Shown: positions 8,835 to 29,308, counted from the stretch's first letter. The stretch is DNA of 64,000 nucleotides from Bacteroidales bacterium (GCA_038244085.1 JBBRTX010000001.1:74064-138063), one strand, 5' to 3'. Program-made: numbers and translations. The notes: generated by a model not told the origin, from the letters alone.

Positions 8835-9582
8835 GCGCGAAAAATACCCGGAACTTATTGTCCGCTTCAACGCCGGAGAACTTGAAGGCGAAGAACTGCG
8901 ACAGTTTATTGAGTTATTGAAAAAGACCCCCAAACTTCAGGAAGAAGTTGCCCTCGATAAGGAAATCAATGAATACTTATCCGAAGAAAATCTTCTCGAC
9001 CTTCGCAGAAAGATGCTTTCGGTCCAAAAGGAGAAGACCGGCGACAAAAACAGGAACTTTTTTTACCTGCTGGCCGCTTCCCTCCTGCTTCTTCTTTCCA
9101 TCGGAGTTTTCCTGTTTTCGCAGATGTCAAAAGACAAAACACGCGGAAAATCAAATATTACCCATACCGGTAATGACGGTGTAGTCAATTCGCAAAAATC
9201 TGTTCCCGTCATCACAGATTTGCTACCTCAACGAAAAGACAAAGAAAAGCCTGTTCAACTGGCTTCCAACTTCCAGCCCGATCCTGCCTATGAAAGCCTT
9301 GCCGGAAACATCATGCGATCTGATAAATTTGAACTGCTTCAACCCACGGCTGCCCAAATCTTCCGGAAAAACGGGAATATTCTTTTCAGGTGGGATATGC
9401 CTGATGGTAAAAAGCTGATGATCCGGATTGTGAATAACAAAGGGAAACAGATCCTGGAATACAGTGTTAACGATCTGCACCAATTGGAAATACCTGTGAA
9501 GCGTTTGCCTCCGGGACTTTTCTATTATAAAATCCTGGAAGATGATGAAATTCTCTTTGTGGGGAAATTTTCGATTGAATAA
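8827..9582 (+). CDS. putative anti-sigma factor (single-pass membrane protein)
   Basis: The start overlaps the sigma gene stop by 8 nt. Short cytoplasmic N-domain, one TM (FFYLLAASLLLLLSIGVFLF), and an extracytoplasmic beta-rich C-domain. The call rests on position and topology. Confidence 0.5.
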   Translation: MSEREKYPELIVRFNAGELEGEELRQFIELLKKTPKLQEEVALDKEINEYLSEENLLDLRRKMLSVQKEKTGDKNRNFFYLLAASLLLLLSIGVFLFSQMSKDKTRGKSNITHTGNDGVVNSQKSVPVITDLLPQRKDKEKPVQLASNFQPDPAYESLAGNIMRSDKFELLQPTAAQIFRKNGNILFRWDMPDGKKLMIRIVNNKGKQILEYSVNDLHQLEIPVKRLPPGLFYYKILEDDEILFVGKFSIE

Positions 9583-12187
9583 AATCTTTTTTGCCTTCCT
9601 GATTATTTTCATTCCGGGGTGGATTATAAATGCATCCGCGCAACTGCCAGTTTATTCCGTTCACCTGACATCAGACAGCGCATCCGGATTATGCAGGTAT
9701 TGTCTCGACAAATCAAAGTCATTCCTGGTTGCCGGCCAACCGGACAGTGCGCTTCTGTACCTTGATTTTGCTATTGAAAAAATCCTTCTTCCTGAAGTGA
9801 AATATCTTTCACTGGAATATCGGCTCCGATCCATGAAAGCATCCTGTTATGTTGTCAAAGAGGAGTGGGATAAGGCACTGCAGGCATTCAGGCAATCGAT
9901 GAAATACGTCATACCGAAATCGAAGTATGCCGGTGACACTTTTCTTAATATCGGAACACTGTTTCTTTTTAAAGAAGATTTTGAGAATGCAGTGGCAAAC
10001 TTCAAACAAGCATTGATCATTTTTACGGCATTACAGGATGATCCGGATCGGATCGTTCAGACGCTGATTTCTCTTAGCGGCTGCTATGCAGAAATGGAAG
10101 ATCCCGTATCCGGCAGATTCTTTTGTGAGGAGGCAGAGAAAGTATTAAGGGCTTCCTCCCAGATGGATTCAAACCTCTATTTCAGTCTTTATACAGATCT
10201 GGGCAGTATCATGCTAAAACAAAATCAGCCGGAAAAGGCTTTAAGGCTCTTTCAGACTGTCGGAAATTTTCATTCCATAAACCTTAATACAGGGTCCAAG
10301 GAAAAATTGATCCTTAACCGTGCCTACGCCGAATGCTACCAGCAACTTGGGAAACCAGATTCTGCCTTGCTTTATCTTAATGATTGCCTTACTGGCCTTA
10401 GCGTTGATCCCGGAATGAAAGCCTACTCCATTGCCAGCATTTACCGGTCGATCGGGGAAAACTATGAAGCAAAAAACCTTCCCGACAGCGCTCTTGCCTC
10501 ATATTCAAAAGGATTGCAGTTATTGAACGCTGATCATCCTTCCAGTTCCCGGGCTCCGGTGGAGGTTTTCCGGTTGATGTGCCAAATGGCAAAATGTGAA
10601 CTTACCACAGGTCGGGTCACAAAAAATCCGGAACTGATTAAAAGTTCCTGGGCTGATTTTAACGCTGCTATGGATCTAACAGATACGATCAATGATTTTC
10701 TGGGTCATAAGGGTTCACGACTGCTATTCAACGAAACGGCAAAAAACACGTTCAGCGGCGCGGCGGAAGCGGGTTTCCTGCTTTATGGGAAAAATGCAAT
10801 GGATACGCTTTTCCAGATCAGTGAAAGATCCCGGAATAAAATCCTTCAAACCATGATCCGGGAAAAGAGGATGGATCTTTCTACTTCAATTCCCGACTCA
10901 ATAAAGAACAGGAAGAACTTGCTTCTTCATCGCATTTCTTCGGAAATGAGAAAGAATACCCATCATGAATCCTTCGGCCGGGAAGAGGAGCTTATGAGTG
11001 ACCTTGATCATCTGTTTGCACTGAAAAGAGAGATAGACAGTCTCCAAAACCAGATGGAAAATATGTTGCCGGAAAGTTCAGCAGCCTTACTGACAGAAAA
11101 AATCACACCGGCGATGATTTGTTCAGCATTGGCAAGGGATGAAGCAATGTTGGAATACCTGATTTCCGGCGATTCTGTATTGTTCATCTTTGGAATGACC
11201 CGGGAAAATTCGATAATCGAACGGGTGATCCTGCCCAAAACATTTAATGCAGCACTTTCGAAACTGAAATCCGCCTTACGATCGGCTAAAACAGACCGTT
11301 TTGTATCCGACAGCTATGAACTTTATCAATACTTGGTAAAACCTGTGTTTCCGTTGATCAAAAACAAAAAACACCTGATCATCATTCCGGATGAGGCGAT
11401 CGCTTTACTTCCATTTGAATGCCTGGTAAAAAATAACGTAAAAGATGAAGCCCCATTTTCATGGTCGCAAGCCAGCTATCTAATAAAGGATTTTGAAATC
11501 AGCTATGCCTTATCAGCTGCAAGCTGGCTGCAAATTCCAAAACAAGGTTCATTCCACGGTACTTTTGGCGGATTCGCCCCGGTCTTTCGCCATCCGGAGG
11601 AAAAATTCCCGGAACTGGTTTTTTCCGGCAAGGAAATAAAAACCGTTGCCGGTATCTTGTCCGAAAAATCAATGTCTACGCTGACAGTGACAGACTCAAA
11701 TGCGACAGAAAGGGAATTTAAGGAAAAGGCCGGTTCGTTATCCATCATTCATATTGCCACCCACAGTGTGATTGATGATCAGCAGCCTGAAAACTCAGGG
11801 TTGATTTTTTATCCTTATTCGAATCAGCAGGACCCGCTCTTTTCCGAAGACGGAGTGCTTTATGATGATGAGATCCTGAATCTCGACCTTGCGGCAGACC
11901 TGGTTGTGCTGAGTGCCTGTGCCTCCGGTAAAGGAAAGATCACCCGGACAGAGGGTGTCCTGGCACTGACCCGGGCATTCATCGTAGCCGGTGCATCCAA
12001 TGTCCTCTATGCTGCCTGGAACATCTCCGACCAACAAACCCCTCCATTGATGGCTCAATTCTATACCCACCTGGCCTCCGGAGAATCCTATGCTGCTTCC
12101 TTGCAGGCTGCCAAGCTGAAGATGATCGCCCATCCCTCCACGGCGCTGCCCTACCTGTGGGCCGGTTTCATGCTGCTTGGAAAATAA
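9542..12187 (+). CDS. exported TPR-repeat / CHAT (caspase-like protease) domain protein
   Basis: Signal peptide MMKFSLWGNFRLNKIFFAFLIIFIPGWIINASAQ. About 350 aa of TPR-like helical repeats. C-terminal CHAT His/Cys dyad contexts IIHIATHS and VVLSACASGKG. Overlaps the anti-sigma gene by 41 nt. Confidence 0.8.
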   Translation: MMKFSLWGNFRLNKIFFAFLIIFIPGWIINASAQLPVYSVHLTSDSASGLCRYCLDKSKSFLVAGQPDSALLYLDFAIEKILLPEVKYLSLEYRLRSMKASCYVVKEEWDKALQAFRQSMKYVIPKSKYAGDTFLNIGTLFLFKEDFENAVANFKQALIIFTALQDDPDRIVQTLISLSGCYAEMEDPVSGRFFCEEAEKVLRASSQMDSNLYFSLYTDLGSIMLKQNQPEKALRLFQTVGNFHSINLNTGSKEKLILNRAYAECYQQLGKPDSALLYLNDCLTGLSVDPGMKAYSIASIYRSIGENYEAKNLPDSALASYSKGLQLLNADHPSSSRAPVEVFRLMCQMAKCELTTGRVTKNPELIKSSWADFNAAMDLTDTINDFLGHKGSRLLFNETAKNTFSGAAEAGFLLYGKNAMDTLFQISERSRNKILQTMIREKRMDLSTSIPDSIKNRKNLLLHRISSEMRKNTHHESFGREEELMSDLDHLFALKREIDSLQNQMENMLPESSAALLTEKITPAMICSALARDEAMLEYLISGDSVLFIFGMTRENSIIERVILPKTFNAALSKLKSALRSAKTDRFVSDSYELYQYLVKPVFPLIKNKKHLIIIPDEAIALLPFECLVKNNVKDEAPFSWSQASYLIKDFEISYALSAASWLQIPKQGSFHGTFGGFAPVFRHPEEKFPELVFSGKEIKTVAGILSEKSMSTLTVTDSNATEREFKEKAGSLSIIHIATHSVIDDQQPENSGLIFYPYSNQQDPLFSEDGVLYDDEILNLDLAADLVVLSACASGKGKITRTEGVLALTRAFIVAGASNVLYAAWNISDQQTPPLMAQFYTHLASGESYAASLQAAKLKMIAHPSTALPYLWAGFMLLGK

Positions 12188-14147: not shown

Positions 14148-17132
14148 TCAGGCTGATAAAGGCTTGTAAACTACACCCAGGTTTTTCTTGCCGTCAATCT
14201 CGATTCGGATAGGATTATCGAAACGGACATGGCGGATGTACTCGTCTTCATAAAAGGCAGGCTGAGCAGAAAGAAATTCTATGTCGTAAAATCCGTCTTT
14301 GATAAAGGGATTGATGGTGAAATAGCCGACACGGAACGAGGTGAGATTCTGAAAGAAATGGGTCCCCTGGCTCGGATCGATCCGGTAATTTTCCAATCCC
14401 GATTCGATGATCACCCTGGCTGATGAGATCTGTGGCCAACGAACCGGAATACCCAGCCAGGGATCCGAAGAGCCCCATCTACCGGGCCCTACCAGCACGT
14501 AATTCTTCTTCTCCGCGGTAAACCGGTCGTTCACCATCTCAATATCACGGGCGATTTCACCGCTTTTTGCGGGATCCCATGCCTCAGGTTTGATATAAAC
14601 AAAGTCGCAGATATCTTTGATAATTCCATTGCCCAGCGCGGTGTTTGAGAGGATCAGGGTATCCTTCACCTGTATCTCTTCCAGTTTCAGGTTCACCGAT
14701 TCATTTTTACCAACAATGGGGCGAATCTGTAAAAGCGAGAAAAGTTTAGGTTCATCACCCGGCAAGTCCAGGTTCACGGCAAACTCGATCTCAACCGGTT
14801 TACCCATTTCCTTCTGACCAATACTGAGAACCGTCTGCAGAACAGCTGCGAGCGGGAACGTCTCATGATTCAATACCTGCGAAAAAGTCAATATCCTTTT
14901 GCCGGGATAGATCGTCCCCTCCACAAGCGAATGATTGTCGTAATCAAAAGTGGAAGCAACCAGTTTCAGGGCACTGTCGTTTTCTGCATCCTTGATCTTG
15001 ACATTCATCAGATTCACTGTCTCATCGACACTGGGCCTGAATTTATCCGGGTTAAGATCCAGCGCATAAAAGCTTTTTTGTGTCTCACTCAATGCCAGTT
15101 CAGGGGAGGAAAGCTGAAGAATCTTTTTTGGGTAATTCGGTGAGAAACGAATCCCGTTACCTCCATCAACGATATATTTCCCCAGGCCGAATGCAATATT
15201 GGCAATGCCATCTTCCGGTTTCTCGGGAGCGATGGGATAAAAATTGATGGAACGGGCTACACCTGAAATACAGGGATAAAAGCGGTCATTATACTGACGG
15301 CCTGTTACTTCCTGCAATACAATTCCCATCTTCTCCTCATCAATCACGTTCAGCGTAGCAGCCATATAGGATTTGCTGTCTTTGTAAAAAGCCGAGGCAT
15401 ATACACTTTTGATCGCCTCCGACAACTTTTCAATCATGACCCTTTCGTTGAATTTTATATTCGGGATCATATAGGTGGAATAGATCCCGGCAAAGGGCTG
15501 GTAATGCGAATCCTCCAGCAAACTGGACGAACGGATGGCGATGGGGTTGTTCACACAGGAAATAAACGTATAGAGATCTTCATGAATCCTGAATGGCAGT
15601 CGTGCCCTGACAAATAGCGACAGGATCTCCTTATCGGTACGGTCGGAAAGGGCAATATCGTAAAGATTATTCTCTTCCATGAACTCATCAAAAATGTCAG
15701 TTCCGATAACCACGGTGCGGGGAATGGAAATGATGACATCGTCAAACCGATCGGATAACCGGTTCCGCTTGACCATTGAATCGAGGAAGGCAAGGCCACG
15801 TGCTTTACCACCAATGGAACCCAGTCCGATCCTGGCAAAGGAAAGGTATTCGTCGTAGCGGTCACGCTCAAACTCGGCGATAACCCCGCGTGCCTTGTTG
15901 ATCCGGAAAGCTGTGATGGAATCGAAGATGTATCGCTTCGCTTCATCCATATCATTGAATTCGGTAACCGATACTTCCTTGAACATCTCAGCGATGGGAA
16001 AGAGAGCCCGGGCATTGAACCACTTTGAAAAATGATTCCGCTGCATATGATAACGCAGCGATTCGTCAGGGACTTCAAAAATCCTCTCCTGCAGGGATTT
16101 CAGATCGGTGGCACGGGTAATTTCTCGGTTGGTCAGAGGATCGGTAAAGACAAAATCGCCGAAGGAGAAATATTCATTAATGTAATTCCGCAACTCGATA
16201 GAAAGCGTCTTCGATTGTTTGTTCAGGAATCCTACTTTCAGCTCTTCCGCAAGCGCCTCATTGCAGGAATCGGATGACTGAAGAAGGATCGGCATAAATT
16301 CATCCTGGCTCTTTACCAATTTCACAAAATCAAGACCGGCTGCTTTGTCAATGGCGCCATTTCTTTTAAAGCTGACATCGGAGATGATCCCAAGCAGGTT
16401 ATGCTTATACTTTTCAAAGAATTTTGCTGCATCTTCATAGTTGGTGGCGAGCACAATCTTGGGCCGGCCCCGCATCCTTACCATCTTCTGGTGTTCGTTG
16501 AGACCTTCCGTGATAAATCCTTTCGACTGCCGGTAAATGATTTTATAAATGTTGGGAAGATAACTTGAATAGAACCGGATGCTGTCCTCCACGAGTAAGA
16601 TCACCTGAACACCCTGACGGATATCGTTCTCGATGTTCATCTTGTCCTCGATGAGCTTGATGATGGCCAGGAGAATGTCAGCATTGCCCAGCCAACTGAA
16701 AACATAATCAATGGCGCTGAGGTTCTTCTCACGCAATTTCAGGCTGACTTCTCTCGAAAACGGGGTTAGAACGACAAAAGGAATCCGGGGATATTTCTCC
16801 TTGATCCGGCCGGCAAGGTCGAAGGTGTCAGAATTCTCGATGTTCAGCATCGAGATGACGAGTTCGATGTTTTTGTCTTCCAGTACTTCAAATGCCTCTT
16901 CTTCTGAGGTGACCTTGATAAATTGAGGAGGATACCGCAAACTCAGGGAAACATATTCCATGAAGATCGTCTCATCAATGCGACCGTCTTCCTCCAGCAT
17001 AAAAGCATCATAGGTACTGGATATGAGCAAAACCTGGTATATCCTTCTTTTCATCAGAAGGTTAAAAGAAGTATCTACAAAATAATATTTCTTCGGATCC
17101 AGCGCGTTTTGCGTATTCAGCTTATTCGGCAT
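14148..17132 (-). CDS. tandem receiver-like domains fused to a PPDK_N-type (PEP/pyruvate-binding, ATP-grasp) domain, with no phosphohistidine swivel
   Basis: The second receiver has VILLVEDS...GIISDV...PILLQSS...FLNK. GSIGGKARGLAFL resembles the GGKGxxL motif of the PPDK/PEP-synthase N-domain. I found no GGxTSHAA swivel motif. It is a paralogue of 23741-27604. Confidence 0.7.
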   Translation of the reverse strand: MPNKLNTQNALDPKKYYFVDTSFNLLMKRRIYQVLLISSTYDAFMLEEDGRIDETIFMEYVSLSLRYPPQFIKVTSEEEAFEVLEDKNIELVISMLNIENSDTFDLAGRIKEKYPRIPFVVLTPFSREVSLKLREKNLSAIDYVFSWLGNADILLAIIKLIEDKMNIENDIRQGVQVILLVEDSIRFYSSYLPNIYKIIYRQSKGFITEGLNEHQKMVRMRGRPKIVLATNYEDAAKFFEKYKHNLLGIISDVSFKRNGAIDKAAGLDFVKLVKSQDEFMPILLQSSDSCNEALAEELKVGFLNKQSKTLSIELRNYINEYFSFGDFVFTDPLTNREITRATDLKSLQERIFEVPDESLRYHMQRNHFSKWFNARALFPIAEMFKEVSVTEFNDMDEAKRYIFDSITAFRINKARGVIAEFERDRYDEYLSFARIGLGSIGGKARGLAFLDSMVKRNRLSDRFDDVIISIPRTVVIGTDIFDEFMEENNLYDIALSDRTDKEILSLFVRARLPFRIHEDLYTFISCVNNPIAIRSSSLLEDSHYQPFAGIYSTYMIPNIKFNERVMIEKLSEAIKSVYASAFYKDSKSYMAATLNVIDEEKMGIVLQEVTGRQYNDRFYPCISGVARSINFYPIAPEKPEDGIANIAFGLGKYIVDGGNGIRFSPNYPKKILQLSSPELALSETQKSFYALDLNPDKFRPSVDETVNLMNVKIKDAENDSALKLVASTFDYDNHSLVEGTIYPGKRILTFSQVLNHETFPLAAVLQTVLSIGQKEMGKPVEIEFAVNLDLPGDEPKLFSLLQIRPIVGKNESVNLKLEEIQVKDTLILSNTALGNGIIKDICDFVYIKPEAWDPAKSGEIARDIEMVNDRFTAEKKNYVLVGPGRWGSSDPWLGIPVRWPQISSARVIIESGLENYRIDPSQGTHFFQNLTSFRVGYFTINPFIKDGFYDIEFLSAQPAFYEDEYIRHVRFDNPIRIEIDGKKNLGVVYKPLSA

Positions 17133-17133
17133 C

Positions 17134-17589
17134 TTAATTTTCTTTCAGGATATAATCGTCATATTCGAGCTCAAACCGCAGTTTATGTTTCGACTCTTCT
17201 TGGGCAAGTCCCAAAAAGATGTTTTTCATAATGGGATCGATCGTTTCTTCCGAAAGCATGAGATATAGACGGAATGCGTTCTTCTCCTTCTTCATGGCCA
17301 GGATGAGTGCATCCGCATACTGCATGTCGGCCGAAGGCGCTACATCGACCAGGTAATCGGCGATCTTCAGATCCCGGATACGTTCAGCGGGCAGGTCGAA
17401 TGATTTGGTTTCCCTGATGTTCAGCAGGCGAAGCTTGTGCTTCATCTCTTCTTCAGCAAAATCCCGAAACACTTCCTTCATCTGCGCATTTTTCGAACGT
17501 TCACTCAGACTGGTATAAAAATCTACCGCTTCCTGTTCTGCGGTGATGGCAAAGTCAAGTATATCATCTGTGGATTGAAAATTTTTCAT
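17134..17589 (-). CDS. ferritin-like / rubrerythrin-family diiron four-helix-bundle protein
   Basis: Two E...ExxH pairs: EQEAVDFY + EEEMKHK and EKNAFRLY + QEESKHK. 151 aa. Its stop is 1 nt from the downstream ATG. Confidence 0.7.
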   Translation of the reverse strand: MKNFQSTDDILDFAITAEQEAVDFYTSLSERSKNAQMKEVFRDFAEEEMKHKLRLLNIRETKSFDLPAERIRDLKIADYLVDVAPSADMQYADALILAMKKEKNAFRLYLMLSEETIDPIMKNIFLGLAQEESKHKLRFELEYDDYILKEN

Positions 17590-17613
17590 TTTGGAATATG
17601 GATTAATCTGTTT

Positions 17614-20600
17614 TTAATTATTGTTTACTGTGTTGAATGCGTCTTCAAAATCTTTATCAAATTTCTGAACAAGATGGTCACAACCGGCTTCAAACAATGG
17701 GTCGGAATCCTCACCATCTGTGATCTCCAGCTTCAGCAAAGAATGATCATTAACCTGTGGGAGCAAGGTAATCATCTCCGAGAGGACATTCTTAGGCGAA
17801 GATAATCCTTCCTGATTAAAAAGCATCAGCATACCGGATAGTTGTCCAATATTATCTTTTTCAATCCGGCATTTGAGCGTAGCTTCAAACTCCTGAATGA
17901 CCTTCTGGGTGTTGGTGAAGCTTCCGCCTGTCTCAACGGGAAAGGAAGCGGGCAGGACCAGGTCGGCTTGCAGTGCCGTTTCAGTCATGAAATAATCCTG
18001 AACCACCTTGAAGGCTGCACCGGAAATCCATGTTTCGGCTTCATCACTCGTGGCGCAACCCAAAGGATCTTCGCCAAAGATGAAGAGGTTTTTGATCCGT
18101 TTTTCCATCAGTAATTCCAGCAAGTCGTTGCTTTTTCCGGAAAGAGAAGACACCTTCCAAAGCTCCTGCAACCTCTGAAGATAAGCCGGATCATCGATTC
18201 GCTGCCCACCAATTCCATATTCCGGATCGATACCCATATCAAGAAGTCCCTGCGAATTGTTTTTCTCGCGTAAGGCGATCAGGCCATTGGAAGTCTTTCC
18301 CAGTTTACCGGTCACCATCGCAAGATTGAACAGTTCCAGTGAGGCTGTATCGGAGATCTCTTTTTCAGAAAAGAGGATGACCGCGTTCAGCTGGTTGTTG
18401 TATTCCTCCGCAAATGTCTTAACCAACAAGGCATCAACACCGGCCTTGAGCAATAGTGCTGGAAAATCTTCCTTCAGCAGACAGGATTTGTATTCTTCAA
18501 ATCCCTCCACGCGATCACGCAGGAAGAGTCCGTTTTCCAGGTTATTTGCCAGAAGGAAATGAGTAACCGCTTTGATGAAATGGTAATAGGATTGGATCCG
18601 GATCACTTCATCCACCTTATGTTCCATGCTGTTCTCTTCCTTCGTGGTGATCAGCGTCAGCGGAATATTTTTGGAGATGTGCGCATTCTGGGTCATGAAT
18701 CCGGCTACTGCATGATCCTGGTTGATCTCTGTGCCTAAATAATAAATATGGCTGGCTCCGTTTACTGCTCCCAATGGAACATTCAGCAGGTTATTTTTCC
18801 GGTAACCTTCTCCCCTTCCCAGATAATGAAAACTGCCTATATTATTGGTTTTTACCGCACACCTGGCCAGTTTCTGGATCAGGTACAGCTCTTCGTTCGA
18901 AAGTCGCGCCCCGGCAAAAAAAGCATTCTCATCGGGTGCGACCTCGCCTATTTTCTCTTTGATCAGGGTAAAGGCCTCTTTGAAACTGATTTCTTCAAAC
19001 TTCCCGTTGGTTTTCTTCAAAGGTTTGAGAATCCTGGTCCGGTCGTTGAGATATTGATAACCGAATTTGGGATATTTACAAAGGTTCCCGTCGGTATTCA
19101 CAATGCCGTTGCGCCCGGAAACGCCCATCACGAATCCATTTTTGTGCTGAAGGTTGATCGCACAGCCTATTGAACAATAGTTGCAGATGGTTTCTGCTTC
19201 ATCCGTTTTAACAGGTCCCGGTTTAAAAATAACATTTTCAGTAATGGCACCGGTTGGACAGGTCGAAATACACAATCCACAGGATTCGCAAGGCGTTTCC
19301 TCGAGAGATTCACCCATGCTGGGAGCTACCAAAGTATCAAAGCCGCGGTTGACAAAACCCAGCGCTTTTGCCCCGACTACTTCCCGGCAAATTCGGATAC
19401 AACGTCCGCAAAGGATACATTTATTGTTATCTATTTCAATATATGGATGACGGAAATCGACCTGGAATTCCCTGAATTCACCGGAGAAGGATTTCTGATT
19501 GGCTCCGTATTCGGTCGAATATTTTTGAAGATCACAATGAAAAAAAGCGGTACAGCCGCATTCCAAACAACGTTGTGTTTCATGCAGGGCGATTTCTTCC
19601 CCTGCATATCCCAATTCCACTTCAGAGAAGTTGGCCCGTTTTTCAGGATCAAGGGTTGGCATTTCTTCACGAGACTGGGATAAGAATTTCCCTGCAAAAT
19701 CTTCTTTTACCTGAACCTTAAAATGATCTTTCCGGCTCATGAAAGGCTTTTTCATCGGTACGAGGGGCAATCCTGAAAGGTATTGATCGGCACTTTCTGA
19801 AGCGATTCTGGCCTGGGCGATGGCTTCGATGATGGTAGCAGGTCCTGTCACACCATCACCTGCTGCAAAAACGGAAGGTATTCCCGTTTGCAGTGTTTCT
19901 TTTTTTGCATCGATATCGCCCCATTTGTTGACGACCAGTTGCCCGTCAGCAGCGAAAGTATTGATATTATCGATAAAATTCACATCCGTTTTTTGACCGA
20001 TGGCCGCCAATGCGTAATCTACCGCAATGATAAAATCGGAACCCTCTATCGGAACAGGTCTTCTCCGGCCTGAAGCGTCCGGTTCACCGAGTTCCATCCG
20101 GGTACAGGTGATGGATTTGAGCGCACCGTTTTCATCCTTATTGACTTTGATAGGTAAAGTCAGAAAGAGATACTCAACGCCTTCAAGTTTGGATTCATGA
20201 ATTTCAATAGGATTCGCGGGCATCTCTTTCTCAGTACGGCGATAAATCACGTAAACCTTATCAGCCTTGCACCGGATGGATGTCCGGCAGCAGTCCATCG
20301 CGGTATTTCCTCCGCCGATGACAGCAATGGTTTTTCCGCGGAAATCGTACCGCTGACCGGTCACTTCCATGTTCCGGAGAAAATCGATTCCTGAAAAGAC
20401 ATTCTCTGCATCATCTCCTTCACACCCGATGGATGTTCCTTTCTGCGATCCGATGGTGAGTATAGTGGCCTGGTATTGATCTTTTATTGCCTGGTAACTA
20501 AGGTTTTCACCCAGCTTTTTCTGATAATGGATGTTAACACCCATCCGGGTGATGGAATCCACTTCCTGATCGATAATGTCATTCGGAAGCCGGTATTCAG

Positions 20601-21321
20601 GAATTCCGTAGCGCAACCATCCACCAGATTGGGGTGCTGCTTCAAAAATATCCACCTGGTGACCCTTCTGCTGAAGGAAATAGGCAGCAGACAATCCTCC
20701 GGGTCCGGCACCAATGACCGCTACTTTTTTACCGGTGGAAGGAGCAATTGCAGGCATGTATTTATTGCCGGATGCAAGATCGATATCAGAAGCAAACCGT
20801 TTTAGATAATCGATTCCAACCGGGGCGCCTTCATCCAGAAGGTTTCTCCGGCAGTCCACCTCACAGGGACGCACGCAAACACGGCCGCAGATGGCGGGCA
20901 ACGGGTTGGTTTCCTTGATCAGCGCAACGGCATCCCGGTAAAGTCCCTTTTCGATAAGGGAGATATATCCCTGGACATCCACTCCGGCGGGACAGGTTTG
21001 TTTGCATGGACCCAGGCAATCCGCATAATGATTGCTGAGCATTAACTCCAGGGCCATCTTCCTTGATTTCCGAATCCCTTCGCTACTGGTGGTGATTTTC
21101 ATTCCTTCGGTCAGCTTTGTTGAGCAGGATGGTTGGTGACCACGCATCCCTTCTACCTCGACCACGCAAACATAACAGGAGGTGAAAGGCTCAAGTCGTT
21201 CATCATTACACAGCGTAGGAATTTTTATCCCATGACGTTCAGCCAGTTGCAGAATGGTTTCTCCGGGGATGCCTTTTACGATGTTTCCGTCTAAAATGAT
21301 GTTCAGAAAATTTTCAGTCAT
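17614..21321 (-). CDS. fusion protein: NuoG-type 2Fe-2S + GltD-like NAD(P)H flavoprotein + NuoG-type FeS clusters + degenerate molybdopterin-oxidoreductase (MopB) domain
   Basis: N-terminal CNDERLEPFTSCYVCVVEV. GltD-like CPAGVDVQGYI, CGRVCVRPCEVDC, VIGAGPGGLSAA and VIGGGNTAMDC. Then CILCGRCIRIC, CESCGLCISTCP and the MopB 4Fe-4S motif CNYCSIGCAINL. The ORF-track start at 21330 is TTG, so I use the ATG at 21321. Confidence 0.75.
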   Translation of the reverse strand: MTENFLNIILDGNIVKGIPGETILQLAERHGIKIPTLCNDERLEPFTSCYVCVVEVEGMRGHQPSCSTKLTEGMKITTSSEGIRKSRKMALELMLSNHYADCLGPCKQTCPAGVDVQGYISLIEKGLYRDAVALIKETNPLPAICGRVCVRPCEVDCRRNLLDEGAPVGIDYLKRFASDIDLASGNKYMPAIAPSTGKKVAVIGAGPGGLSAAYFLQQKGHQVDIFEAAPQSGGWLRYGIPEYRLPNDIIDQEVDSITRMGVNIHYQKKLGENLSYQAIKDQYQATILTIGSQKGTSIGCEGDDAENVFSGIDFLRNMEVTGQRYDFRGKTIAVIGGGNTAMDCCRTSIRCKADKVYVIYRRTEKEMPANPIEIHESKLEGVEYLFLTLPIKVNKDENGALKSITCTRMELGEPDASGRRRPVPIEGSDFIIAVDYALAAIGQKTDVNFIDNINTFAADGQLVVNKWGDIDAKKETLQTGIPSVFAAGDGVTGPATIIEAIAQARIASESADQYLSGLPLVPMKKPFMSRKDHFKVQVKEDFAGKFLSQSREEMPTLDPEKRANFSEVELGYAGEEIALHETQRCLECGCTAFFHCDLQKYSTEYGANQKSFSGEFREFQVDFRHPYIEIDNNKCILCGRCIRICREVVGAKALGFVNRGFDTLVAPSMGESLEETPCESCGLCISTCPTGAITENVIFKPGPVKTDEAETICNYCSIGCAINLQHKNGFVMGVSGRNGIVNTDGNLCKYPKFGYQYLNDRTRILKPLKKTNGKFEEISFKEAFTLIKEKIGEVAPDENAFFAGARLSNEELYLIQKLARCAVKTNNIGSFHYLGRGEGYRKNNLLNVPLGAVNGASHIYYLGTEINQDHAVAGFMTQNAHISKNIPLTLITTKEENSMEHKVDEVIRIQSYYHFIKAVTHFLLANNLENGLFLRDRVEGFEEYKSCLLKEDFPALLLKAGVDALLVKTFAEEYNNQLNAVILFSEKEISDTASLELFNLAMVTGKLGKTSNGLIALREKNNSQGLLDMGIDPEYGIGGQRIDDPAYLQRLQELWKVSSLSGKSNDLLELLMEKRIKNLFIFGEDPLGCATSDEAETWISGAAFKVVQDYFMTETALQADLVLPASFPVETGGSFTNTQKVIQEFEATLKCRIEKDNIGQLSGMLMLFNQEGLSSPKNVLSEMITLLPQVNDHSLLKLEITDGEDSDPLFEAGCDHLVQKFDKDFEDAFNTVNNN

Positions 21322-21341
21322 TTTCAGCAAAATTTTTATTT

Positions 21342-23120
21342 TCAGGATAAGATGATGGATGAGAATTTACATTTCGAGAAACAAACCCCGCATTTGGTGC
21401 AGATCTCCTGGTGAATGAGATGTACAGCCTTCCGTTCACCAGTGATCGCATTTGACGGGCAATTTTTCAAACAAACCATACAACCGGTGCACTTTTCCGC
21501 ATCAACCGAGTAGGTGAGCAATGGCCGGCAAACTTTTGCAGGACATTTCTTATGCAGGATATGTGCCTCATATTCATCTCTGAAATATTTAATCGTCGTG
21601 AGTACAGGATTGGGCGCTGTCTGGCCCAGTCCGCAAAGCGAATTATCCTTGATCTGGTGTGCGAGCTCTTCCAGTTTCTCAATATCTCCTTCCCTCCCTT
21701 CTGCGTTGGTGATCCGTTCAAGGATCTCGAGCATACGTTTCGTTCCCATTCGACAGAAAGTACATTTCCCGCAGGATTCTTTCCGGGTGAAATCGAGGAA
21801 AAATTTGGCAACGTCAACCATACAGGTTGTTTCGTCCATCACAACCATACCGCCTGAACCCATGATGGCGCCGGTAGCGTTGACAGAGTCATAATCGACG
21901 ATGGTGTCGGAAAGGTATTCAGGTATACATCCACCTGAAGGGCCGCCCATCTGCACTGCCTTAAATTTCTTGTCGTTCTTGATCCCGCCTCCCAACTTGA
22001 AGATCACCTCGCGGATGGTCATTCCCATAGGAACTTCAACCAGACCCGAATGTTTGATCTTACCTGCAAGTGCAAAAACCTTGGTCCCCTTGCTTTTCTC
22101 TGTTCCGTAGGCTGCATAAGCTTCCGGCCCGTTCAGGATAATCCAGGGGATGTTGGCAAAAGTCTCTACGTTGTTGATGTTGGTAGGTTTTTTCCAGAGG
22201 CCGGAAACGGCAGGAAATGGCGGCCTTTTTCTTGGCATGCCACGCTCTCCTTCAACGGAAGCAATGAGCGCCGTTTCTTCTCCGCATACAAAAGCCCCTG
22301 CTCCTTCTTTGATCGTAATGTCAAAGTTAAAGCCCTCCATCCCGAAGATATTTTTCCCAAGATAGCCTTTTAACCGGGCTTGGGTGATGGCAATGTTCAA
22401 TCTTTTGATGGCCAGAGGATATTCCGCCCGGCAATAGATAACACCCTGGGTGGCTTCAATGGCATAAGCGGCTATGATCATTCCTTCCAATACCGAATGC
22501 GGATCACCTTCGAGCACAGAACGATCCATGAACGCCCCGGGATCTCCTTCATCGGCATTACAGATTACATATTTTTCTGATGACTTGTTCGCATTGGCGA
22601 ATTTCCATTTCAGACCGGTAGGAAATCCTCCGCCGCCCCTTCCGCGGATCCCGGAATCCAGAATGGTCTGGATCACTTCCATCCCGGGTAACTGGCTCTT
22701 TATGATTCCTTGTATGGCCCGATATCCGTCACGTGCTTCATATTCATCGATCGATTCCGGATCCATGTATCCGCAGTTCCGCAGCACAATCTTCACCTGT
22801 GCATTCAGAAATTCGCTCTCGGCAGCATCAAAAACCGAACTGTGAACGAGATATTCCCCTACCGGATCACCCAGGTTGATATGCTTGTCCATCACCTCCG
22901 CCACCCGGGCTTCATTCATATCCCCGTAAAGCCACGTACCGGATCCGTCTCTTACTTCAACCAGGGGTTCGCGATAGCACATCCCGATACAACTGGTCTT
23001 TTTCAGATCGAAATCCAGTTTTCCGGCTTCCTGCAAAGATTTAATTTTGTCGTAAGTTTTACCCGCCCCTGCGGCAATCCCGCAGCTTCCGAGTCCCACT
23101 GTTACAGTTGTTCTTGACAT
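21342..23120 (-). CDS. NuoF/HydB-like NADH-binding FMN flavoprotein with N-terminal thioredoxin-like 2Fe-2S and C-terminal 2x[4Fe-4S]
   Basis: GRGGGGFPTGLKWKF (FMN), CGEETALIASVEG (NADH), ESCGKCTFCRMG (N3-type 4Fe-4S), and C-terminal CTGCMVCLKNCP and CTKCGVCFSKC. Confidence 0.85.
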   Translation of the reverse strand: MSRTTVTVGLGSCGIAAGAGKTYDKIKSLQEAGKLDFDLKKTSCIGMCYREPLVEVRDGSGTWLYGDMNEARVAEVMDKHINLGDPVGEYLVHSSVFDAAESEFLNAQVKIVLRNCGYMDPESIDEYEARDGYRAIQGIIKSQLPGMEVIQTILDSGIRGRGGGGFPTGLKWKFANANKSSEKYVICNADEGDPGAFMDRSVLEGDPHSVLEGMIIAAYAIEATQGVIYCRAEYPLAIKRLNIAITQARLKGYLGKNIFGMEGFNFDITIKEGAGAFVCGEETALIASVEGERGMPRKRPPFPAVSGLWKKPTNINNVETFANIPWIILNGPEAYAAYGTEKSKGTKVFALAGKIKHSGLVEVPMGMTIREVIFKLGGGIKNDKKFKAVQMGGPSGGCIPEYLSDTIVDYDSVNATGAIMGSGGMVVMDETTCMVDVAKFFLDFTRKESCGKCTFCRMGTKRMLEILERITNAEGREGDIEKLEELAHQIKDNSLCGLGQTAPNPVLTTIKYFRDEYEAHILHKKCPAKVCRPLLTYSVDAEKCTGCMVCLKNCPSNAITGERKAVHLIHQEICTKCGVCFSKCKFSSIILS

Positions 23121-23139
23121 ATCCTGGATAGATTATTTT

Positions 23140-23658
23140 TTAATTATTCTCAGCAGTCCTGATATTTTTGATGATTTTCACCGTTTCGCTCCCGGTCAGT
23201 TTACCATACGTCTGATCGGCAACCATCATGACCGGTGCGAGGGAACAGCAACCGAGACAGGCAACAGATTCAAGCGTAAAGAGCCGGTCTTCCGTGGTTT
23301 CACCGTCCTTGATTTTCATCGATTCTTCCAGCGCTTCGGTGATTTCTTTGGCATTCTGGACATGGCAGGCAGTACCATGACAAACCTTGATGATGTGTTT
23401 TCCCACCGGATGCATCCGGAATTGTGCATAAAAAGTGGCAACACCATACATCTCGCTTAATTCAAGACCGGTTTCGCGGGAGATTTTTTCAAAAACCGGC
23501 TTGGGTAGAAACCCATAAATCTCCTGAGCACCCTGTAAAAGCGGGATCATGTTGCCTTTCTTTCCTTTGTATTTTTTTATCAAACCATCAAGCAGCGTCA
23601 GATCCGGTTCTGACACATTGTTGAGTATTACTTTTTCTGAAATTCTTGATATTCGCAT
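23140..23658 (-). CDS. NuoE/HydC-like 2Fe-2S ferredoxin subunit
   Basis: Cys pattern CHGTACHV ... CLGCCSLAP. The ORF-track start at 23718 is GTG, and the ATG at 23658 gives a typical length of about 172 aa. Confidence 0.85.
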   Translation of the reverse strand: MRISRISEKVILNNVSEPDLTLLDGLIKKYKGKKGNMIPLLQGAQEIYGFLPKPVFEKISRETGLELSEMYGVATFYAQFRMHPVGKHIIKVCHGTACHVQNAKEITEALEESMKIKDGETTEDRLFTLESVACLGCCSLAPVMMVADQTYGKLTGSETVKIIKNIRTAENN

Positions 23659-23740
23659 AGTCCTGTTTTTATCAATTGAAAAAATTGATTCATCACTTTC
23701 CGGCCTTCGGCTTGTCACCGTCTTTCATTGTTGCCGGACA

Positions 23741-26700
23741 TCATTTATTTGTTGTAATTACAGATATCCGCTTCTTGCCGTCCATCTTCACCGTTAACGG
23801 TTTTTCAAAACGGGCAATCATGAAATAACCTGTTTTGGTTAGGTTTTTCTGACTTTTCAGGGTATCGTACCGGATAAAGCTTCCCGACATTTCCGGCTGG
23901 ATACAAAAGTAACCAACATTCATGGAAGTGACGTTATGAAAAAAGTGAGAACCCGAGGATGCATCCAGCGGAAATCCCTCGAGACTCGTCTCAACGATCA
24001 CCTTTGCATTAGAGATCTGGGGCCATTTTACAGGCACTCCAATCCATTTGTCGCGGGAGCCCCAGCGTCCGGGACCGATCAGGATATATTTCTTATTGTT
24101 CTTCACCATTTCTGCGTTGATCTTTTCGATCTCATCCGCCATAGCCTCTGTTTTCGATTTATCGAACGTGTCGGGATCTACAAAAACCACCTCGTCGATA
24201 TCATCCATCAAACCGTTCCCCATCTCCTTCTCCGAAAAGAGCAGGATATCCTCCTTCGGGATTTTATCCATGTCAACATTGTAATCGGTGGCATTGCCGA
24301 TGAGGGGTTTGATCTGGAGCAAGTAAAATGTGGCTTTGTTTTCCTGGTCCTTATTAAGATCTACGGCAAATTCCATTTCAACAGGAGAACCCAATGCTTC
24401 CTTTACCAGATCAAGTACCACTTCGATGGTTTTTGCCAGCGGGATGTAATTGTATTTCAGGATATCTGCAAAATTGACGACCCGCGGACCGGCCTGGTTG
24501 AGCCCCGGGCTGATCCGGTTGTTTTCCAGCGAATAAACCGAGGCAAGATGCTTCAGCGTTCCGTGGAGCTCCGCTTCATCGATATCCATTTTCCTCAATC
24601 CCGCATCCTCACCTTCCAGGAGATTAACATCACTCTTTTTCATATCCACCGCGTAAAAATAAACCTGCGATCCTTTATACTGGTCTTTCGGCGTATTGAT
24701 TTCAAGATTGGGATACAGCGGGGAGAAACGATAGGCTTTCTCACCCTCCACAACATACCGCCCAAGGCCTAACGCGCAAACGGCAAATCCTTCTTCCGGT
24801 TTCATGTGCCCGAAAGGATAATAGTTGTACGACTGGGCCACTCCGCTGATATGCGGATAATAAACATCCGCATACTGGCTGCCTACCACTTCCTGGATAA
24901 CGATGGCCATTTTCTCCTGCTCAATCTTATAATTGATCGCCTCGATATAGCTTTTGGCGGTTTTTGAATAAACCGATGCATAAACCAGTTTTATTGCATC
25001 CATGAGCTGTTCCAGCCTGACTTTCGGGTCAGGATGAACATTCGGGATGAGATAGGTTTCGAAAATGCCGGCAAAAGGCTGGTTCAGGGAATCCTCGAAC
25101 AATCCGGATGACCGGATGGCAAGGGGTTTTGTGATGTATTTTACGATGAGTTTCAGCTTCCGGATCAGACTTTCGGTAAGCTTACCTTCCAGGAATGCTT
25201 TTTTAAGTTCTTGATAATCTTCCTCATATACCGCCCTTTCGCGGAGCTTATTCCGGTCGAGAAAATATTCAAATTCATCCGTGCCGATGATGGATGTCTT
25301 TGGAGTCCGGATATTGATATTCGGAATGTGTTGTGAGAAATCGTAATTATAAATGAGCGTATTGATAAAGGCAAGGCCGCGTCCCTTACCGCCTAATGCA
25401 CCTTCGGTGAGGGTGATGATATTTTTGTCATCGGTAATGGCCAATTCTTCAAAAGGTATCACTTTCCCGATATTTTGTTCATTCCTGAAATGCTGAATCA
25501 CGCTGATCAGGTATTCCCGCAGGCTTTTCGGATCCTTGAAATCGGTAACTTTTGCCGGGTTCAGGATCTTGGCCACCTGGATCTCACCACGGGCCATCAG
25601 CCACATCGAAAAATGGTCTTTTCGGGCATGGTACAAGAGGGATTCTTCGGGAATCGTAATCAGAAAATCTTCAAATTCTTTCAGAGACCTGGCCACGGCA
25701 ATCTGTCTGCCTTCCTTATCGCGGTAAATAAAATTCCCAAACCCCAGGTAATGTGTGATAAAACTCTTGAAATCAAGCAGCAGGGTTTCCGAATTTTTAT
25801 TGATAAAAGTCGTTTTCAGATCAAATGCCTCATTAATATTGTCTTCGTTCGAAGACTGCAGAACGATCGGCAACTCCTTGATCTCCTTCCGGGTTTGTTT
25901 CACCAGCTGAAAACCTGCCTGGGAGTTGAGTTTTCCGTCCTTTTTAAATTTTACATCAGATATCAGGCACAACACATAATCCTTGTACTTGTTAAAGATA
26001 TACATGGCCTCTTCATAGGTGGAAGCCAGCATTATCTTAGGTCTTGCCTTAAGCCGGAGGATCCGGTATAGCTCATCCGTCGTAACATCCTCGATGATAT
26101 GCTTGGTTTGTTCCAGCACAATGTTGTAAAGCATCGGAAGATAGAGCGAATAATATTTCGGGGAATCTTCCACCAGTAAGATCACCCGGGTCATCCCAAT
26201 ATGGGTATCGTTTTCCACATTGATCTTATCTTCCAGGTAATTGATCATGGCAAAAAAGATCTTGGAATCGCCGTTCCACACGAATATCCGGTCAATCCAG
26301 GTCAGTTTTTCGGGTTCCTGGTCAAAATGGGCGATATCGGTATTGCTGTTCAGTAACAAAAACACCGGGATATACTGGAACTGGCTTTTGATCTTCTGGC
26401 TCAGTTCTACCGGAAACTGTTTATCGACGCCCATCATGATGATGACCAGGTCGTAATGTTTGGAATTGATCTGCTCAAACACTTCTTCCTCTGCAGAAAC
26501 ACCGGTTATACGGGGCATGGTACTAAGGCTCAGCTGGTAAAACTCCCCAAGAACATGTTCCGAGAATCTTCCTTCTTTTTCAATGCTGTAGGCATCATAT
26601 AAATTGGCTACCAACAGGATCTCTTTGACCTTAAAAGGCATCAGGTCGTGATAGAGGTCGCGGTTATAGTTATTACGGTTGAGGAAAGTCTGGAGAAGCT

Positions 26701-27604
26701 GACGACTGTATTTGACTCCTTCTTTGCTTTCTTCCCTGGGTGCAACCTCCTTAACCGTTTTTCGCAAGATGGCTTTCCCTTTTATACTATTAAGGTACCC
26801 GGTAATCAGGTTGGCAAGGTTGATGATCAGATGCCGTTCCTCTTCCAGAAATGGCCCTTCAAAGGAAGGCTGAAAGGCTTTCAGGTAAAAAATCTCGATA
26901 CAACCGCTCAGGTTATCAATGGTTTCGAAAGATTGCTTCTGGCACCATTGGGTTTCACGAAACCCGGGACTCGTACACTCGATATTTACGTATCGGATCC
27001 GACATACCGCGAACTCAGGATATTGCCATGCTTTAGGGATGACCAGGCAGATCTGATGTAGCGCTTCTTCTATCGGTTTTCCCGTACGTAAAATTGCGGT
27101 GGTCTGATTGATGGCAGAAAGCTCCTTGAGTCTTTCACGGGTCACGTAATGCCCCTCTTTCCCTTTCACTCCATTCAGATATCCTTCGATGAGGTTGGCC
27201 AGGTTCATGATCAGGTTCCGTTCCTCTTTCATGAACGGACCTTCATCCATCTCCGGAAATTCCTTCAGGTAAAAAATCTGGATGATCCCGGAGATACTGT
27301 CAATGGTTTCAAAAGGTTGTTCCTGCTTCCATGAGGTCTCCCTAAAATCGTGACTCACAAACTCCATGTCATCGTAGAGAATCCGTGCAACAGTTTCTTC
27401 AGGATACTGCCAGGCACGGGGAAGGATATAGCAGATTTCCTGGAGGGTTTCAGGAATGGAGCGATCCATCCTGGTAATGACGGTGGTGTCATTGATGGCA
27501 TTTAATTCTTTCAATCGTTCCCTGGTATCAAAGAGTAATTTCTCTACATCCAGTTTTTTAGGATCAACTGAAACATTCCCTGATGAATCGTCATTAGGCT
27601 GCAT
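23741..27604 (-). CDS. two GAF-like sensor repeats + receiver-like domains + PPDK_N-type ATP-grasp domain (paralogue of 14148-17132)
   Basis: Collinear with the 994-aa paralogue over about 950 aa, for example ILLVEDSPKYYS, CLISDV and GALGGKGRGLAFI. It has an extra N-terminal tandem 129-aa repeat. The ORF-track start at 27619 is TTG, and the first ATG is 27604. Confidence 0.7.
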   Translation of the reverse strand: MQPNDDSSGNVSVDPKKLDVEKLLFDTRERLKELNAINDTTVITRMDRSIPETLQEICYILPRAWQYPEETVARILYDDMEFVSHDFRETSWKQEQPFETIDSISGIIQIFYLKEFPEMDEGPFMKEERNLIMNLANLIEGYLNGVKGKEGHYVTRERLKELSAINQTTAILRTGKPIEEALHQICLVIPKAWQYPEFAVCRIRYVNIECTSPGFRETQWCQKQSFETIDNLSGCIEIFYLKAFQPSFEGPFLEEERHLIINLANLITGYLNSIKGKAILRKTVKEVAPREESKEGVKYSRQLLQTFLNRNNYNRDLYHDLMPFKVKEILLVANLYDAYSIEKEGRFSEHVLGEFYQLSLSTMPRITGVSAEEEVFEQINSKHYDLVIIMMGVDKQFPVELSQKIKSQFQYIPVFLLLNSNTDIAHFDQEPEKLTWIDRIFVWNGDSKIFFAMINYLEDKINVENDTHIGMTRVILLVEDSPKYYSLYLPMLYNIVLEQTKHIIEDVTTDELYRILRLKARPKIMLASTYEEAMYIFNKYKDYVLCLISDVKFKKDGKLNSQAGFQLVKQTRKEIKELPIVLQSSNEDNINEAFDLKTTFINKNSETLLLDFKSFITHYLGFGNFIYRDKEGRQIAVARSLKEFEDFLITIPEESLLYHARKDHFSMWLMARGEIQVAKILNPAKVTDFKDPKSLREYLISVIQHFRNEQNIGKVIPFEELAITDDKNIITLTEGALGGKGRGLAFINTLIYNYDFSQHIPNINIRTPKTSIIGTDEFEYFLDRNKLRERAVYEEDYQELKKAFLEGKLTESLIRKLKLIVKYITKPLAIRSSGLFEDSLNQPFAGIFETYLIPNVHPDPKVRLEQLMDAIKLVYASVYSKTAKSYIEAINYKIEQEKMAIVIQEVVGSQYADVYYPHISGVAQSYNYYPFGHMKPEEGFAVCALGLGRYVVEGEKAYRFSPLYPNLEINTPKDQYKGSQVYFYAVDMKKSDVNLLEGEDAGLRKMDIDEAELHGTLKHLASVYSLENNRISPGLNQAGPRVVNFADILKYNYIPLAKTIEVVLDLVKEALGSPVEMEFAVDLNKDQENKATFYLLQIKPLIGNATDYNVDMDKIPKEDILLFSEKEMGNGLMDDIDEVVFVDPDTFDKSKTEAMADEIEKINAEMVKNNKKYILIGPGRWGSRDKWIGVPVKWPQISNAKVIVETSLEGFPLDASSGSHFFHNVTSMNVGYFCIQPEMSGSFIRYDTLKSQKNLTKTGYFMIARFEKPLTVKMDGKKRISVITTNK
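26774..27526 (-). repeat. tandem in-frame duplication encoding two ~125-aa GAF-like modules
   Basis: RERLKEL(N/S)AIN.TT.I...(I/L)CxxxP(R/K)AWQYPE...R(I)xY....(C/F).S..FRET.W...Q.FETID..SG.I(Q/E)IFYLK.F....EGPF..EER.LI.NLANLI.GYLN occurs twice (ORF residues 32-154 and 160-282). Confidence 0.7.
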
Positions 27605-27869
27605 GGTAGCTACTTTCAAGGTATGGAATGAACTTTGAGGAAAGGTCGTAAAATTACATATTCTTTTCTTTCCTCCAAATTAATCGTCTAATAATTAGAG
27701 TAATACGTGTTTTACTTATTGTCTTATACGTATTATTCTAACTTTAATTAAGTATTTTTCTTATATTATTGTAAATTAAATACTTATAAAAAAATTTTAG
27801 AATAAATTATGTATTTCGAGAAAATATTTTCTTTAATATTGCTTCACATTTTCACATCCTATTTACTAA

Positions 27870-29246
<1,377 letters not shown>

Positions 29247-29270
29247 CCACGTTTGTTTTTTTTGATTTGA

Positions 29271-29308
29271 AGAGAAGGCTGTTCCGAAAGGATGGCCTTC
29301 TCTTTTTC
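29271..29308 (+). terminator. rho-independent terminator of gdhA
   Basis: AGAGAAGGC (29271-29279) pairs with GCCTTCTCT (29295-29303), followed by a T-run. Confidence 0.6.

Follow-up and report, generated by a model that had tools for sequence, protein, structure and literature searches.

A Stn-type redox cassette within a receiver/ATP-grasp gene pair beside gdhA in a Bacteroidales genome

We examined a 64,000-nucleotide stretch of DNA from a Bacteroidales bacterium (GCA_038244085.1, JBBRTX010000001.1:74064-138063), hereafter the window, focusing on a cluster of six genes on its minus strand. Comparison with related loci showed that, as judged from sequence, this cluster is a composite: a redox cassette of the StnABC type lies inside an older pair of genes for two large receiver/ATP-grasp proteins (REC-PPDK_N), which we call PPK_A and PPK_B. 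The conserved partners of the PPK pair are gdhA, encoding an NADPH-consuming glutamate dehydrogenase (GDH), and, in other lineages, a korAB-type oxidoreductase. We propose that PPK_A and PPK_B would be signal-transducing enzymes rather than phosphoenolpyruvate (PEP) synthases, and that stnABC, placed between their genes, would tie NADPH supply to the signal that governs GdhA-dependent ammonium assimilation. We lean towards this explanation as a whole; that the PPK proteins are functionally linked to GDH and nitrogen assimilation is, taken by itself, likely.

Gene neighbourhoods of the PPK family

Eighty loci from species-representative genomes, four looked-up loci and the window, less two duplicates, gave a set of 83 loci, whose open reading frames (ORFs) were clustered without prior labels. 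By far the commonest neighbour of PPK was gdh, which was present in the retrieved flanks of 32 of the 83 loci and immediately adjacent in 24. Among the 41 loci with at least 5 kb on both sides, gdh lay within 5 kb in 19; assuming one to three gdh copies per 3-6 Mb genome, we estimate the chance of such proximity at <1%. The two genes are divergent in Paludibacter, Parabacteroides, Phocaeicola and the window, while Lutibacter and Polaribacter carry a co-directional gdh-PPK-gdh order. For distant relatives of PPK (34-44% identity) gdh was the immediate neighbour in five of seven cases, including a GDH of a different subfamily. The original prediction had regarded the neighbouring gdhA as meaningful, and this was borne out, gdhA being the dominant conserved neighbour of the family.

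No gene family besides gdh exceeded 15 of the 83 loci. That number was reached by a korAB-type two-subunit 2-oxoacid:ferredoxin oxidoreductase (the designation does not imply a substrate), which lay directly upstream of PPK in about 11 loci and whose alpha subunit passes TIGR03710. PPK_A and PPK_B were directly tandem, with nothing between them, in 17 loci. Stn-type genes occurred in six, five of them convincing. The cstA gene that is convergent to the cluster in the window (Pfam CstA match) had been put forward as a further partner; it adjoined the family nowhere else, and none of 84 related loci gave a CstA match.

The slot between the two PPK genes is filled in more than one way. Four independent contigs, with identities of 70-86%, share the order PPK_A-stnABC-ferritin-like gene, and the flanked arrangement recurs in the relatives L001, L003 and L097. 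The PPDK_N genes are not specifically co-conserved with the redox genes, which accompany them in about 5 of the 83 loci. A scan from the Stn side in metagenome contigs yielded three loci, too few to estimate how often stnABC of Bacteroidota is flanked by PPK. In the closest genome relative (L005), whose PPK proteins and GdhA are 75% identical to those of the window and whose gdhA is likewise divergent, PPK_A is followed by nfnA, nfnB (L005:6291-8981) and PPK_B, all in one direction. NfnA matched best to NfnI of P. furiosus (5jca_S, E 2e-95) and NfnB to the T. maritima protein (4ylf_B, 4e-163), with an N-terminal extension of ~140 residues relative to the solved enzymes. Two ferredoxin-dependent NADPH generators with different mechanisms, StnABC in the window and NfnAB in L005, have been taken up between the same two genes, which speaks for joint management of NADPH supply and ammonium assimilation in these anaerobes.

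Other genes recur around the family. An S9 prolyl oligopeptidase is found near PPK and gdh (window 6068-8173, L094:5856-7946, L061:6633-8744), separating the two in Bacteroides genomes; its distance from PPK_B in the window is 6 kb. The recurrence may mark a link to peptide nitrogen or only synteny. A putative glutamate racemase gene (murI) and OmpH-like genes precede korAB-PPK in L017, L021, L025, L027, L030, L032, L034 and L049, and a putative FabD/FolE/QueD block follows it in the same loci; both recurrences probably reflect lineage synteny. A lead from Baggio & Morrison 1996, concerning trans-acting genes downstream of gdhA in B. thetaiotaomicron, was not supported, as judged from a B. ovatus-group genome in which gdh is followed downstream by the gene of an M24 peptidase, PPK standing 4.4 kb upstream in divergent orientation.

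Architecture of PPK_A and PPK_B

PPK is a large family. In a sequence library clustered at 50% identity it had 3882 representatives at E<=1e-3 and 998 at E<=1e-30, mostly of ~990 residues. PPK_B alone has more than 8000 homologues, with 78-85% identity among Bacteroidales, and between clusters from gut Bacteroides, with thousands of members apiece, PPK identity is 87-98%. A literature search on the REC-PPDK_N family returned nothing relevant, and neither this receiver-dikinase family nor its association with gdhA, korAB-type genes and transhydrogenases seems to have been described before.

PPK_A and PPK_B are collinear over 966 residues at 38% identity, which defines a common core of pseudo-receiver, receiver, linker, PPDK_N and C-terminal domain; PPK_A carries two sensor modules in front of it. 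The REC and PPDK_N domains read earlier in both proteins were recovered, and the collinearity adds a pseudo-receiver to the string given for the first of them. Tandem GAF domains had also been read at the N-terminus of PPK_A; Pfam gave no GAF match there even at E<=5, and a PAS/GAF-like fold was seen by Foldseek only. The AlphaFold model of the sensor module, with a predicted local distance difference test score (pLDDT) of 83.5, matched DosP (1e-4), the PDE5A GAF domain (4e-4), PDE2A and phytochromes at probability 1.0, E values of 1e-4 to 1e-3 and template modelling (TM) scores of ~0.3. On this evidence the modules moderately resemble tandem GAF/PAS sensors. We found 152 homologues of the module, those with names being nearly all from Bacteroidales and some being fused to a LuxR/GerE helix-turn-helix domain.

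The first receiver, as read from the sequence, is degenerate and lacks the acceptor Asp. In the second, E182, S286 and K305 (PPK_B numbering) are conserved in at least 90% of 106 family representatives, and D183 and D252 in 70-90%. The linker that follows has weak similarity to DUF5752. The ATP-grasp motifs GGK, RSS..ED, E-x-E-F and LQxRP are invariant in the family, and the ATP-grasp domain is predicted to be catalytically intact. The Arg of LQxRP sits at what we take, by our own mapping, to be the position of PPDK R337. Among 105 family members in related loci the motif reads LQ[IV]KP in 15 of 16 A-type paralogues and LQ[IV]RP in 85 of 89 B-type paralogues, a systematic Arg-to-Lys split that suggests a sub-functionalised heteromer.

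An AlphaFold model of PPK_B residues 300-994 (pLDDT 88, predicted TM score 0.85) had as its top Foldseek matches rifampin phosphotransferase (5hv1, 5e-13), HpeI and PPDK (5e-7), with 1kbl, 5lu4 and 9goj among the matches. The resemblance to rifampin phosphotransferase is confined: the NCBIfam model RIF_Ptrans_rph scored 22 bits (cut-off 999) over ~100 residues of the ATP-grasp, and there is no room for the ~430-residue rifampin-binding insert. The NCBIfam models PigC and RedH also gave partial matches. Neither PPK_A nor PPK_B has the PEP/pyruvate-binding TIM barrel (PF02896), the chain ending ~160 residues past the ATP-grasp. This makes two of the database names, 'phosphoenolpyruvate synthase' and 'PEP/pyruvate-binding domain-containing protein', misleading. 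The PPK proteins cannot be PEP synthases, and a widespread misannotation is thereby corrected.

These last ~160 residues form a C-terminal domain with invariant GxGRWG, E910 and G-x-H925-F-F motifs. It gave no PF00391 match at E<=5, and a profile of 26 C-terminal-domain sequences retrieved no dikinase from the PDB sequences, its only matches being insignificant ones to longin domains. The domain, of beta/alpha type, comes immediately after the ATP-grasp, and a helix begins at its invariant His. From this position, the His itself and the secondary structure, our guess is that the domain is a phospho-carrier His domain; because it has no detectable sequence similarity to PF00391, we can only infer a phospho-His role.

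Fusions of 1520-1650 residues contain two PPK cores, the second of them the more divergent, with a PAS/GAF-like module in between and without receivers. They were found at L089:8001-12920, L090:1304-5875 and L092:6001-10965, in each case beside a gdh of a different subfamily. The L092 fusion ends in a nucleotidyltransferase domain (NTP_transf_2), and just upstream of gdh in L089 lies the gene of a LuxR regulator that contains a sensor module of the PPK_A type.

The cluster in the window and its redox cassette

Six long minus-strand ORFs were confirmed at 14148-27619 (Table 1). Their length, strong family matches and conserved synteny establish that the pattern is not due to chance. ORF coordinates and spacing agree with the six genes and 1-24 nt gaps first read; with longest-ORF starts the gaps are, in transcription order, 22, 19, 11, 24 and 1 nt. 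The longest StnA ORF, with a GTG start and 192 residues, exceeds its 172-residue homologues by 20 residues (window 23658-23718); translation probably begins at an internal Met, and the gap between PPK_A and stnA would then be ~82 nt. The labels PPDK_N, NuoE, NuoF, 2Fe2S-GltD-NuoG/MopB, diiron, CstA and GdhA were all upheld by Pfam and NCBIfam.

Table 1. Positions of the cluster, its main domains and the adjoining gdhA in the window.
Feature	Position	Strand	Remarks
PPK_A, 1292 residues	23741-27619	-	TTG start; alternative ATG at 27604; PPDK_N residues 741-1111, E 2.7e-40
PPK_A tandem ~135-residue sensor modules, residues ~25-290	26750-27547	-	putative PAS/GAF-like fold
StnA/BfuC-like [2Fe-2S] subunit, NuoE type	23140-23718	-	PF01257 E 2.6e-51; NF005722 NuoE 152.9 bits, cut-off 141
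StnB/BfuB-like FMN/NADH subunit, NuoF type, with C-terminal 2x[4Fe-4S] ferredoxin domain	21342-23120	-	Pfam Complex1_51K, NADH_4Fe-4S, 2x Fer4
StnC/NfnA(Bfu)-like subunit, 1238 residues	17614-21330	-	[2Fe-2S], GltD-like NADPH/FAD module, NuoG-type clusters, inactive-type MopB domain
Rubrerythrin/ferritin-like diiron protein, 151 residues	17134-17589	-	PF02915 E 5e-16; two ExxH motifs
PPK_B, 994 residues	14148-17132	-	PPDK_N residues 439-819, E 1.1e-40; Response_reg
PPK_B second receiver, residues ~175-306	16215-16610	-	E182, D183, D252 (putative phospho-acceptor, codon 16377-16379), S286, K305
PPK_B C-terminal domain, residues ~838-994	14151-14621	-	invariant G-x-G-R-W-G, E910, S-x-G-x-H925-F-F (His codon 14358-14360)
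AT-rich divergent intergenic region PPK_A/gdhA, 268 bp	27620-27887	.	partly alignable with L005 and L044 counterparts
gdhA, NADP-specific glutamate dehydrogenase, divergent from PPK_A	27888-29246	+	Pfam ELFV_dehydrog; NF006929 768 bits, cut-off 536

The second and third subunits of the redox trio were matched to solved complexes in the PDB. StnB aligned over its full length to 8oh5_B (E 5e-263), 9bov_B (2e-253) and 9n5u_B (2e-253), and StnC matched 9bov_A (4e-232), 8oh5_C (5e-221) and 9n5u_A ('NfnA', 8e-186). With 1172 residues, 8oh5_C has the published length of S. ovata StnC; the names and lengths of the molecules lead us to take 9bov and 9n5u for the published NfnABC structures. In Pfam the StnC chain reads Fer2_4 (residues 9-83), Fer4_20 (107-186), Pyr_redox_2 (201-507), Fer4_Nqo3 (629-697), Molybdop_Fe4S4 (713-762) and Molybdopterin (766-1157). 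The Pfam scan gave no Molydop_binding match in StnC, in agreement with the inactive FdhF-like domain described for the S. ovata protein. The paper on S. ovata StnC reports K170, a ligand of cluster C7, as strictly conserved and also singles out R239; the equivalents of both are identical in the 8oh5_C alignment ('...ylKrf...' and '...peyRlp...', by our count).

We consider the trio very probably a flavin-based electron-bifurcating NADH-dependent ferredoxin:NADP+ oxidoreductase of the StnABC/NfnABC (Bfu) family, on the strength of these sequence matches and of the literature on StnABC and Nfn-Bfu enzymes (PMC7483475, PMC10482914, PMC11829005, PMC12018979). The original prediction had noted a Bfu-type trio with a GltD-like NADPH module; what is present is the full architecture of the solved complexes, and thus more than a reminiscence. 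The predicted reaction should be NADH + reduced ferredoxin + 2 NADP+ <-> NAD+ + oxidised ferredoxin + 2 NADPH, which is reversible and would physiologically run towards the two NADPH. The redox enzyme itself is already known, and Nfn-type Bfu enzymes have been recorded in Bacteroidetes (Schut et al. 2022, PMC9304861); it is the host and the gene setting that differ. The ferritin-like gene follows stnC in the window, L001, L003, L095 and L097 and is missing from L010, so that it looks like an optional accessory; its product has no rubredoxin domain.

A strong terminator-like hairpin with a 16-bp stem and six G-C pairs (window 29269-29305) lies directly 3' of gdhA, which therefore looks monocistronic. 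A promoter and terminator scan found no enrichment (24 found against 26 expected, and 21 against 20), the sigma-70 consensus being unsuited to Bacteroidota. Alignment of the divergent gdhA/PPK_A intergenic regions gave short conserved blocks only, with no operator callable.

Further afield, the window encodes an 881-residue protein with TPR and caspase-like CHAT domains upstream of cstA (9542-12187). A cohesin-domain protein (PF00963, E 1.5e-25; 51439-53943) stands between two PKD-domain proteins (49915-51411 and 53967-59654), which carry C-terminal sorting domains of the type IX secretion system and include a 1895-residue cargo protein of that system. Sorting domains of this kind and the names of the nearest homologues (Lentimicrobium, Bacteroidales) assign the organism to Bacteroidota. 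A sigma-54-dependent activator (Sigma54_activat and HTH_8; 60148-61557), for which no receiver match was reported, lies 32 kb from the cluster.

Proposed role, alternatives and relation to known systems

In the mechanism that we favour, the receiver Asp and the PAS/GAF-like modules of PPK_A would gate the PPDK-type ATP-grasp, which would phosphorylate the invariant His of the C-terminal domain (H925 in PPK_B) in the manner of PPS, PPDK and rifampin phosphotransferase. From there the phosphoryl group would pass to a target at the node of glutamate synthesis, where 2-oxoglutarate, NADPH and glutamate meet. GDH itself would be the most economical and likely target, a proposal of direct acceptance that we hold as doubtful. 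PPK_A and PPK_B would probably form a hetero-oligomer, since they are fused elsewhere and the A-type proteins carry Lys at the conserved catalytic Arg. With gaps of 1-24 nt stnABC is probably co-transcribed with the PPK genes, and NADPH would then be supplied according to the needs of GDH.

Several observations weigh against this explanation. The C-terminal domain has no detectable similarity to the PEP-utilizers swivel domain, and no cognate histidine kinase is encoded near the cluster in the window; a hybrid kinase adjoins PPK in one distant locus only (L092). About half of the loci with full flanks have no gdh within 5 kb, including L051, L054, L056 and L062 of Bacteroides. The combination of stn with PPK genes is limited to one narrow clade (the window, L001, L003, L097 and L010), and nfnAB was seen in the slot in one locus. 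In L003 an AbiEii toxin/DUF6922 pair and two small ORFs (L003:7883-9949) separate the ferritin-like gene from PPK_B, and the ferritin-like gene of L097 is succeeded by genes on the opposite strand over at least 5 kb, with no PPK_B seen. Co-transcription is read from gene spacing, and the functions given to the PPK proteins are computational inferences.

The unrelated insertions in L003 and L097 mean that the cassette could be a passenger, the gap between PPK_A and PPK_B being a permissive landing site that stnABC and the ferritin-like gene reached by chance, unconnected in function to the PPK proteins or gdhA. That stn genes accompany PPK in so few loci, and that the paralogues are so often directly tandem, would fit such an insertion. 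We nevertheless consider it improbable: the same slot in the closest relative holds the non-homologous NfnAB, which catalyses the same reaction, the recurrent neighbours gdhA and korAB belong to this metabolic node too and draw on NADPH and ferredoxin, the short gaps on one strand suggest co-transcription, and the PPK_A-stnABC-ferritin order has persisted in independent contigs. On a model drawn from the original prediction the flanking proteins would have a different part, in which PPDK_N senses pyruvate or PEP and regulates or joins the Stn complex, with a link to cstA. It draws on the tight flanking of stnABC, and the reference to pyruvate/PEP status goes back to the database name attached to PPDK_N. 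This domain is a nucleotide-binding ATP-grasp, and neither PEP-utilizers_C nor PEP-utilizers accompanies it. Moreover, cstA is adjacent nowhere else, most PPK genes have no stn genes, and the solved Stn and Nfn-Bfu complexes are complete with three subunits. The comparative data have largely refuted this model, and we regard it as very improbable.

Two further explanations concern the chemistry of the PPK proteins. They could form a self-contained phosphorelay, in which the ATP-grasp/His module, as an unconventional histidine kinase, phosphorylates the receiver Asp of its own chain or of the paralogue and the output is an altered protein interaction, for example binding or inhibition of GDH, and not the phosphorylation of a substrate outside the pair. 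An invariant His and a conserved acceptor Asp in one polypeptide, the frequency of paired paralogues or fusions, and the want of a histidine kinase near the cluster in the window, or of a consistent one in the relatives, all agree with this. We still rate a relay of this kind as rather unlikely, for the double-core fusions without receivers keep their association with gdh, so that the receiver cannot be the obligatory acceptor, and the Asp is conserved in only 70-90% of sequences against an invariant His. Alternatively PPK may be a regulated small-molecule dikinase that phosphorylates a metabolite, for instance a cofactor or an intermediate of the 2-oxoglutarate/glutamate/NAD(P) node, in the style of rifampin phosphotransferase, HpeHI, PigC or phenylphosphate synthase, with the receiver tuning its activity. 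All characterised structural relatives without the barrel act on small molecules, and a conserved DUF5752-like domain precedes the ATP-grasp. Against this, none of the genes nearby would make use of such a phosphorylated product, GDH, KorAB, Stn and Nfn, which are encoded there, are complete and self-sufficient enzymes, and sensors, two receivers and paralogue pairing are typical of signalling proteins; we think such a dikinase quite unlikely.

Bacteroidota are not known to have the classical NtrBC/GlnD/GlnE circuitry. A protein of ~110 kDa that is encoded beside gdhA across the phylum is a concrete and genetically testable candidate regulator of nitrogen sensing and of the GDH route. Taken to its furthest, the signalling role that we favour would make PPK_A and PPK_B a new class of protein dikinase that switches GDH, and perhaps the transhydrogenase, covalently, and would supply the missing regulator of nitrogen status in these bacteria; this is speculative and we hold it unlikely. 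With the same low confidence, it might explain why GDH of Bacteroides is reversibly inactivated in vivo, as Yamamoto et al. reportedly observed in 1987. Our literature search on reversible inactivation of GDH in Bacteroides found nothing.

The redox part of the cluster can be compared with three known or predicted enzymes. With StnABC/NfnABC it shares three subunits in the same gene order and the same StnC domain string of [2Fe-2S] domain, GltD-like NADPH/FAD module, NuoG-type clusters and FdhF-like MopB domain. It differs in its Bacteroidota host, in the added downstream rubrerythrin-like gene and in the position of the cassette between two receiver/ATP-grasp genes beside gdhA. Canonical NfnAB/NfnSL has the same overall reaction as Stn and occupies the stnABC slot in L005, whereas its subunit composition and bifurcation site are different and it is absent from the window. 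The predicted Rub-Bfu (PMC9304861) likewise has a rubrerythrin-family gene directly downstream of the Bfu genes. In contrast to the cluster described here, with its complete StnC/BfuA-type subunit, Rub-Bfu lacks BfuA and has rubrerythrin in its place; the diiron protein in the window is short (151 residues) and is dispensable in L010.

For the PPK proteins a functional analogy, as distinct from homology, is the control of glutamine synthetase and PII by GlnE and GlnD, where a large signal-integrating modifier is also encoded with, or acts on, an enzyme of ammonium assimilation; the nucleotidyltransferase domain of one PPK fusion may be noted in this connection. Fold and chemistry are different, and modification of GDH is put forward here as a hypothesis. 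With PEP synthase, PPDK, rifampin phosphotransferase and HpeHI the PPK proteins share the ATP-grasp fold and its GGK, RSS, E..E and LQxR motifs, and the domain with the invariant His follows the ATP-grasp, where dikinases carry their phospho-His domain. Unlike these enzymes they have neither a TIM barrel nor a rifampin-binding domain, their C-terminal domain is not recognisable as PF00391, and their N-terminal half consists of two receivers, to which PAS/GAF-like sensors may be added. Response regulators with enzymatic output, such as CheB, REC-GGDEF and REC-PP2C proteins, resemble them in placing a conserved receiver before a catalytic domain; in PPK the receiver is duplicated, the first copy is degenerate and no kinase is encoded nearby. 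A literature search found no description of an ATP-grasp output of dikinase type in a response regulator. Among response regulators PPK would appear to be unprecedented in its ATP-grasp output, and among members of the dikinase superfamily it would stand as one with the architecture of a signalling protein.

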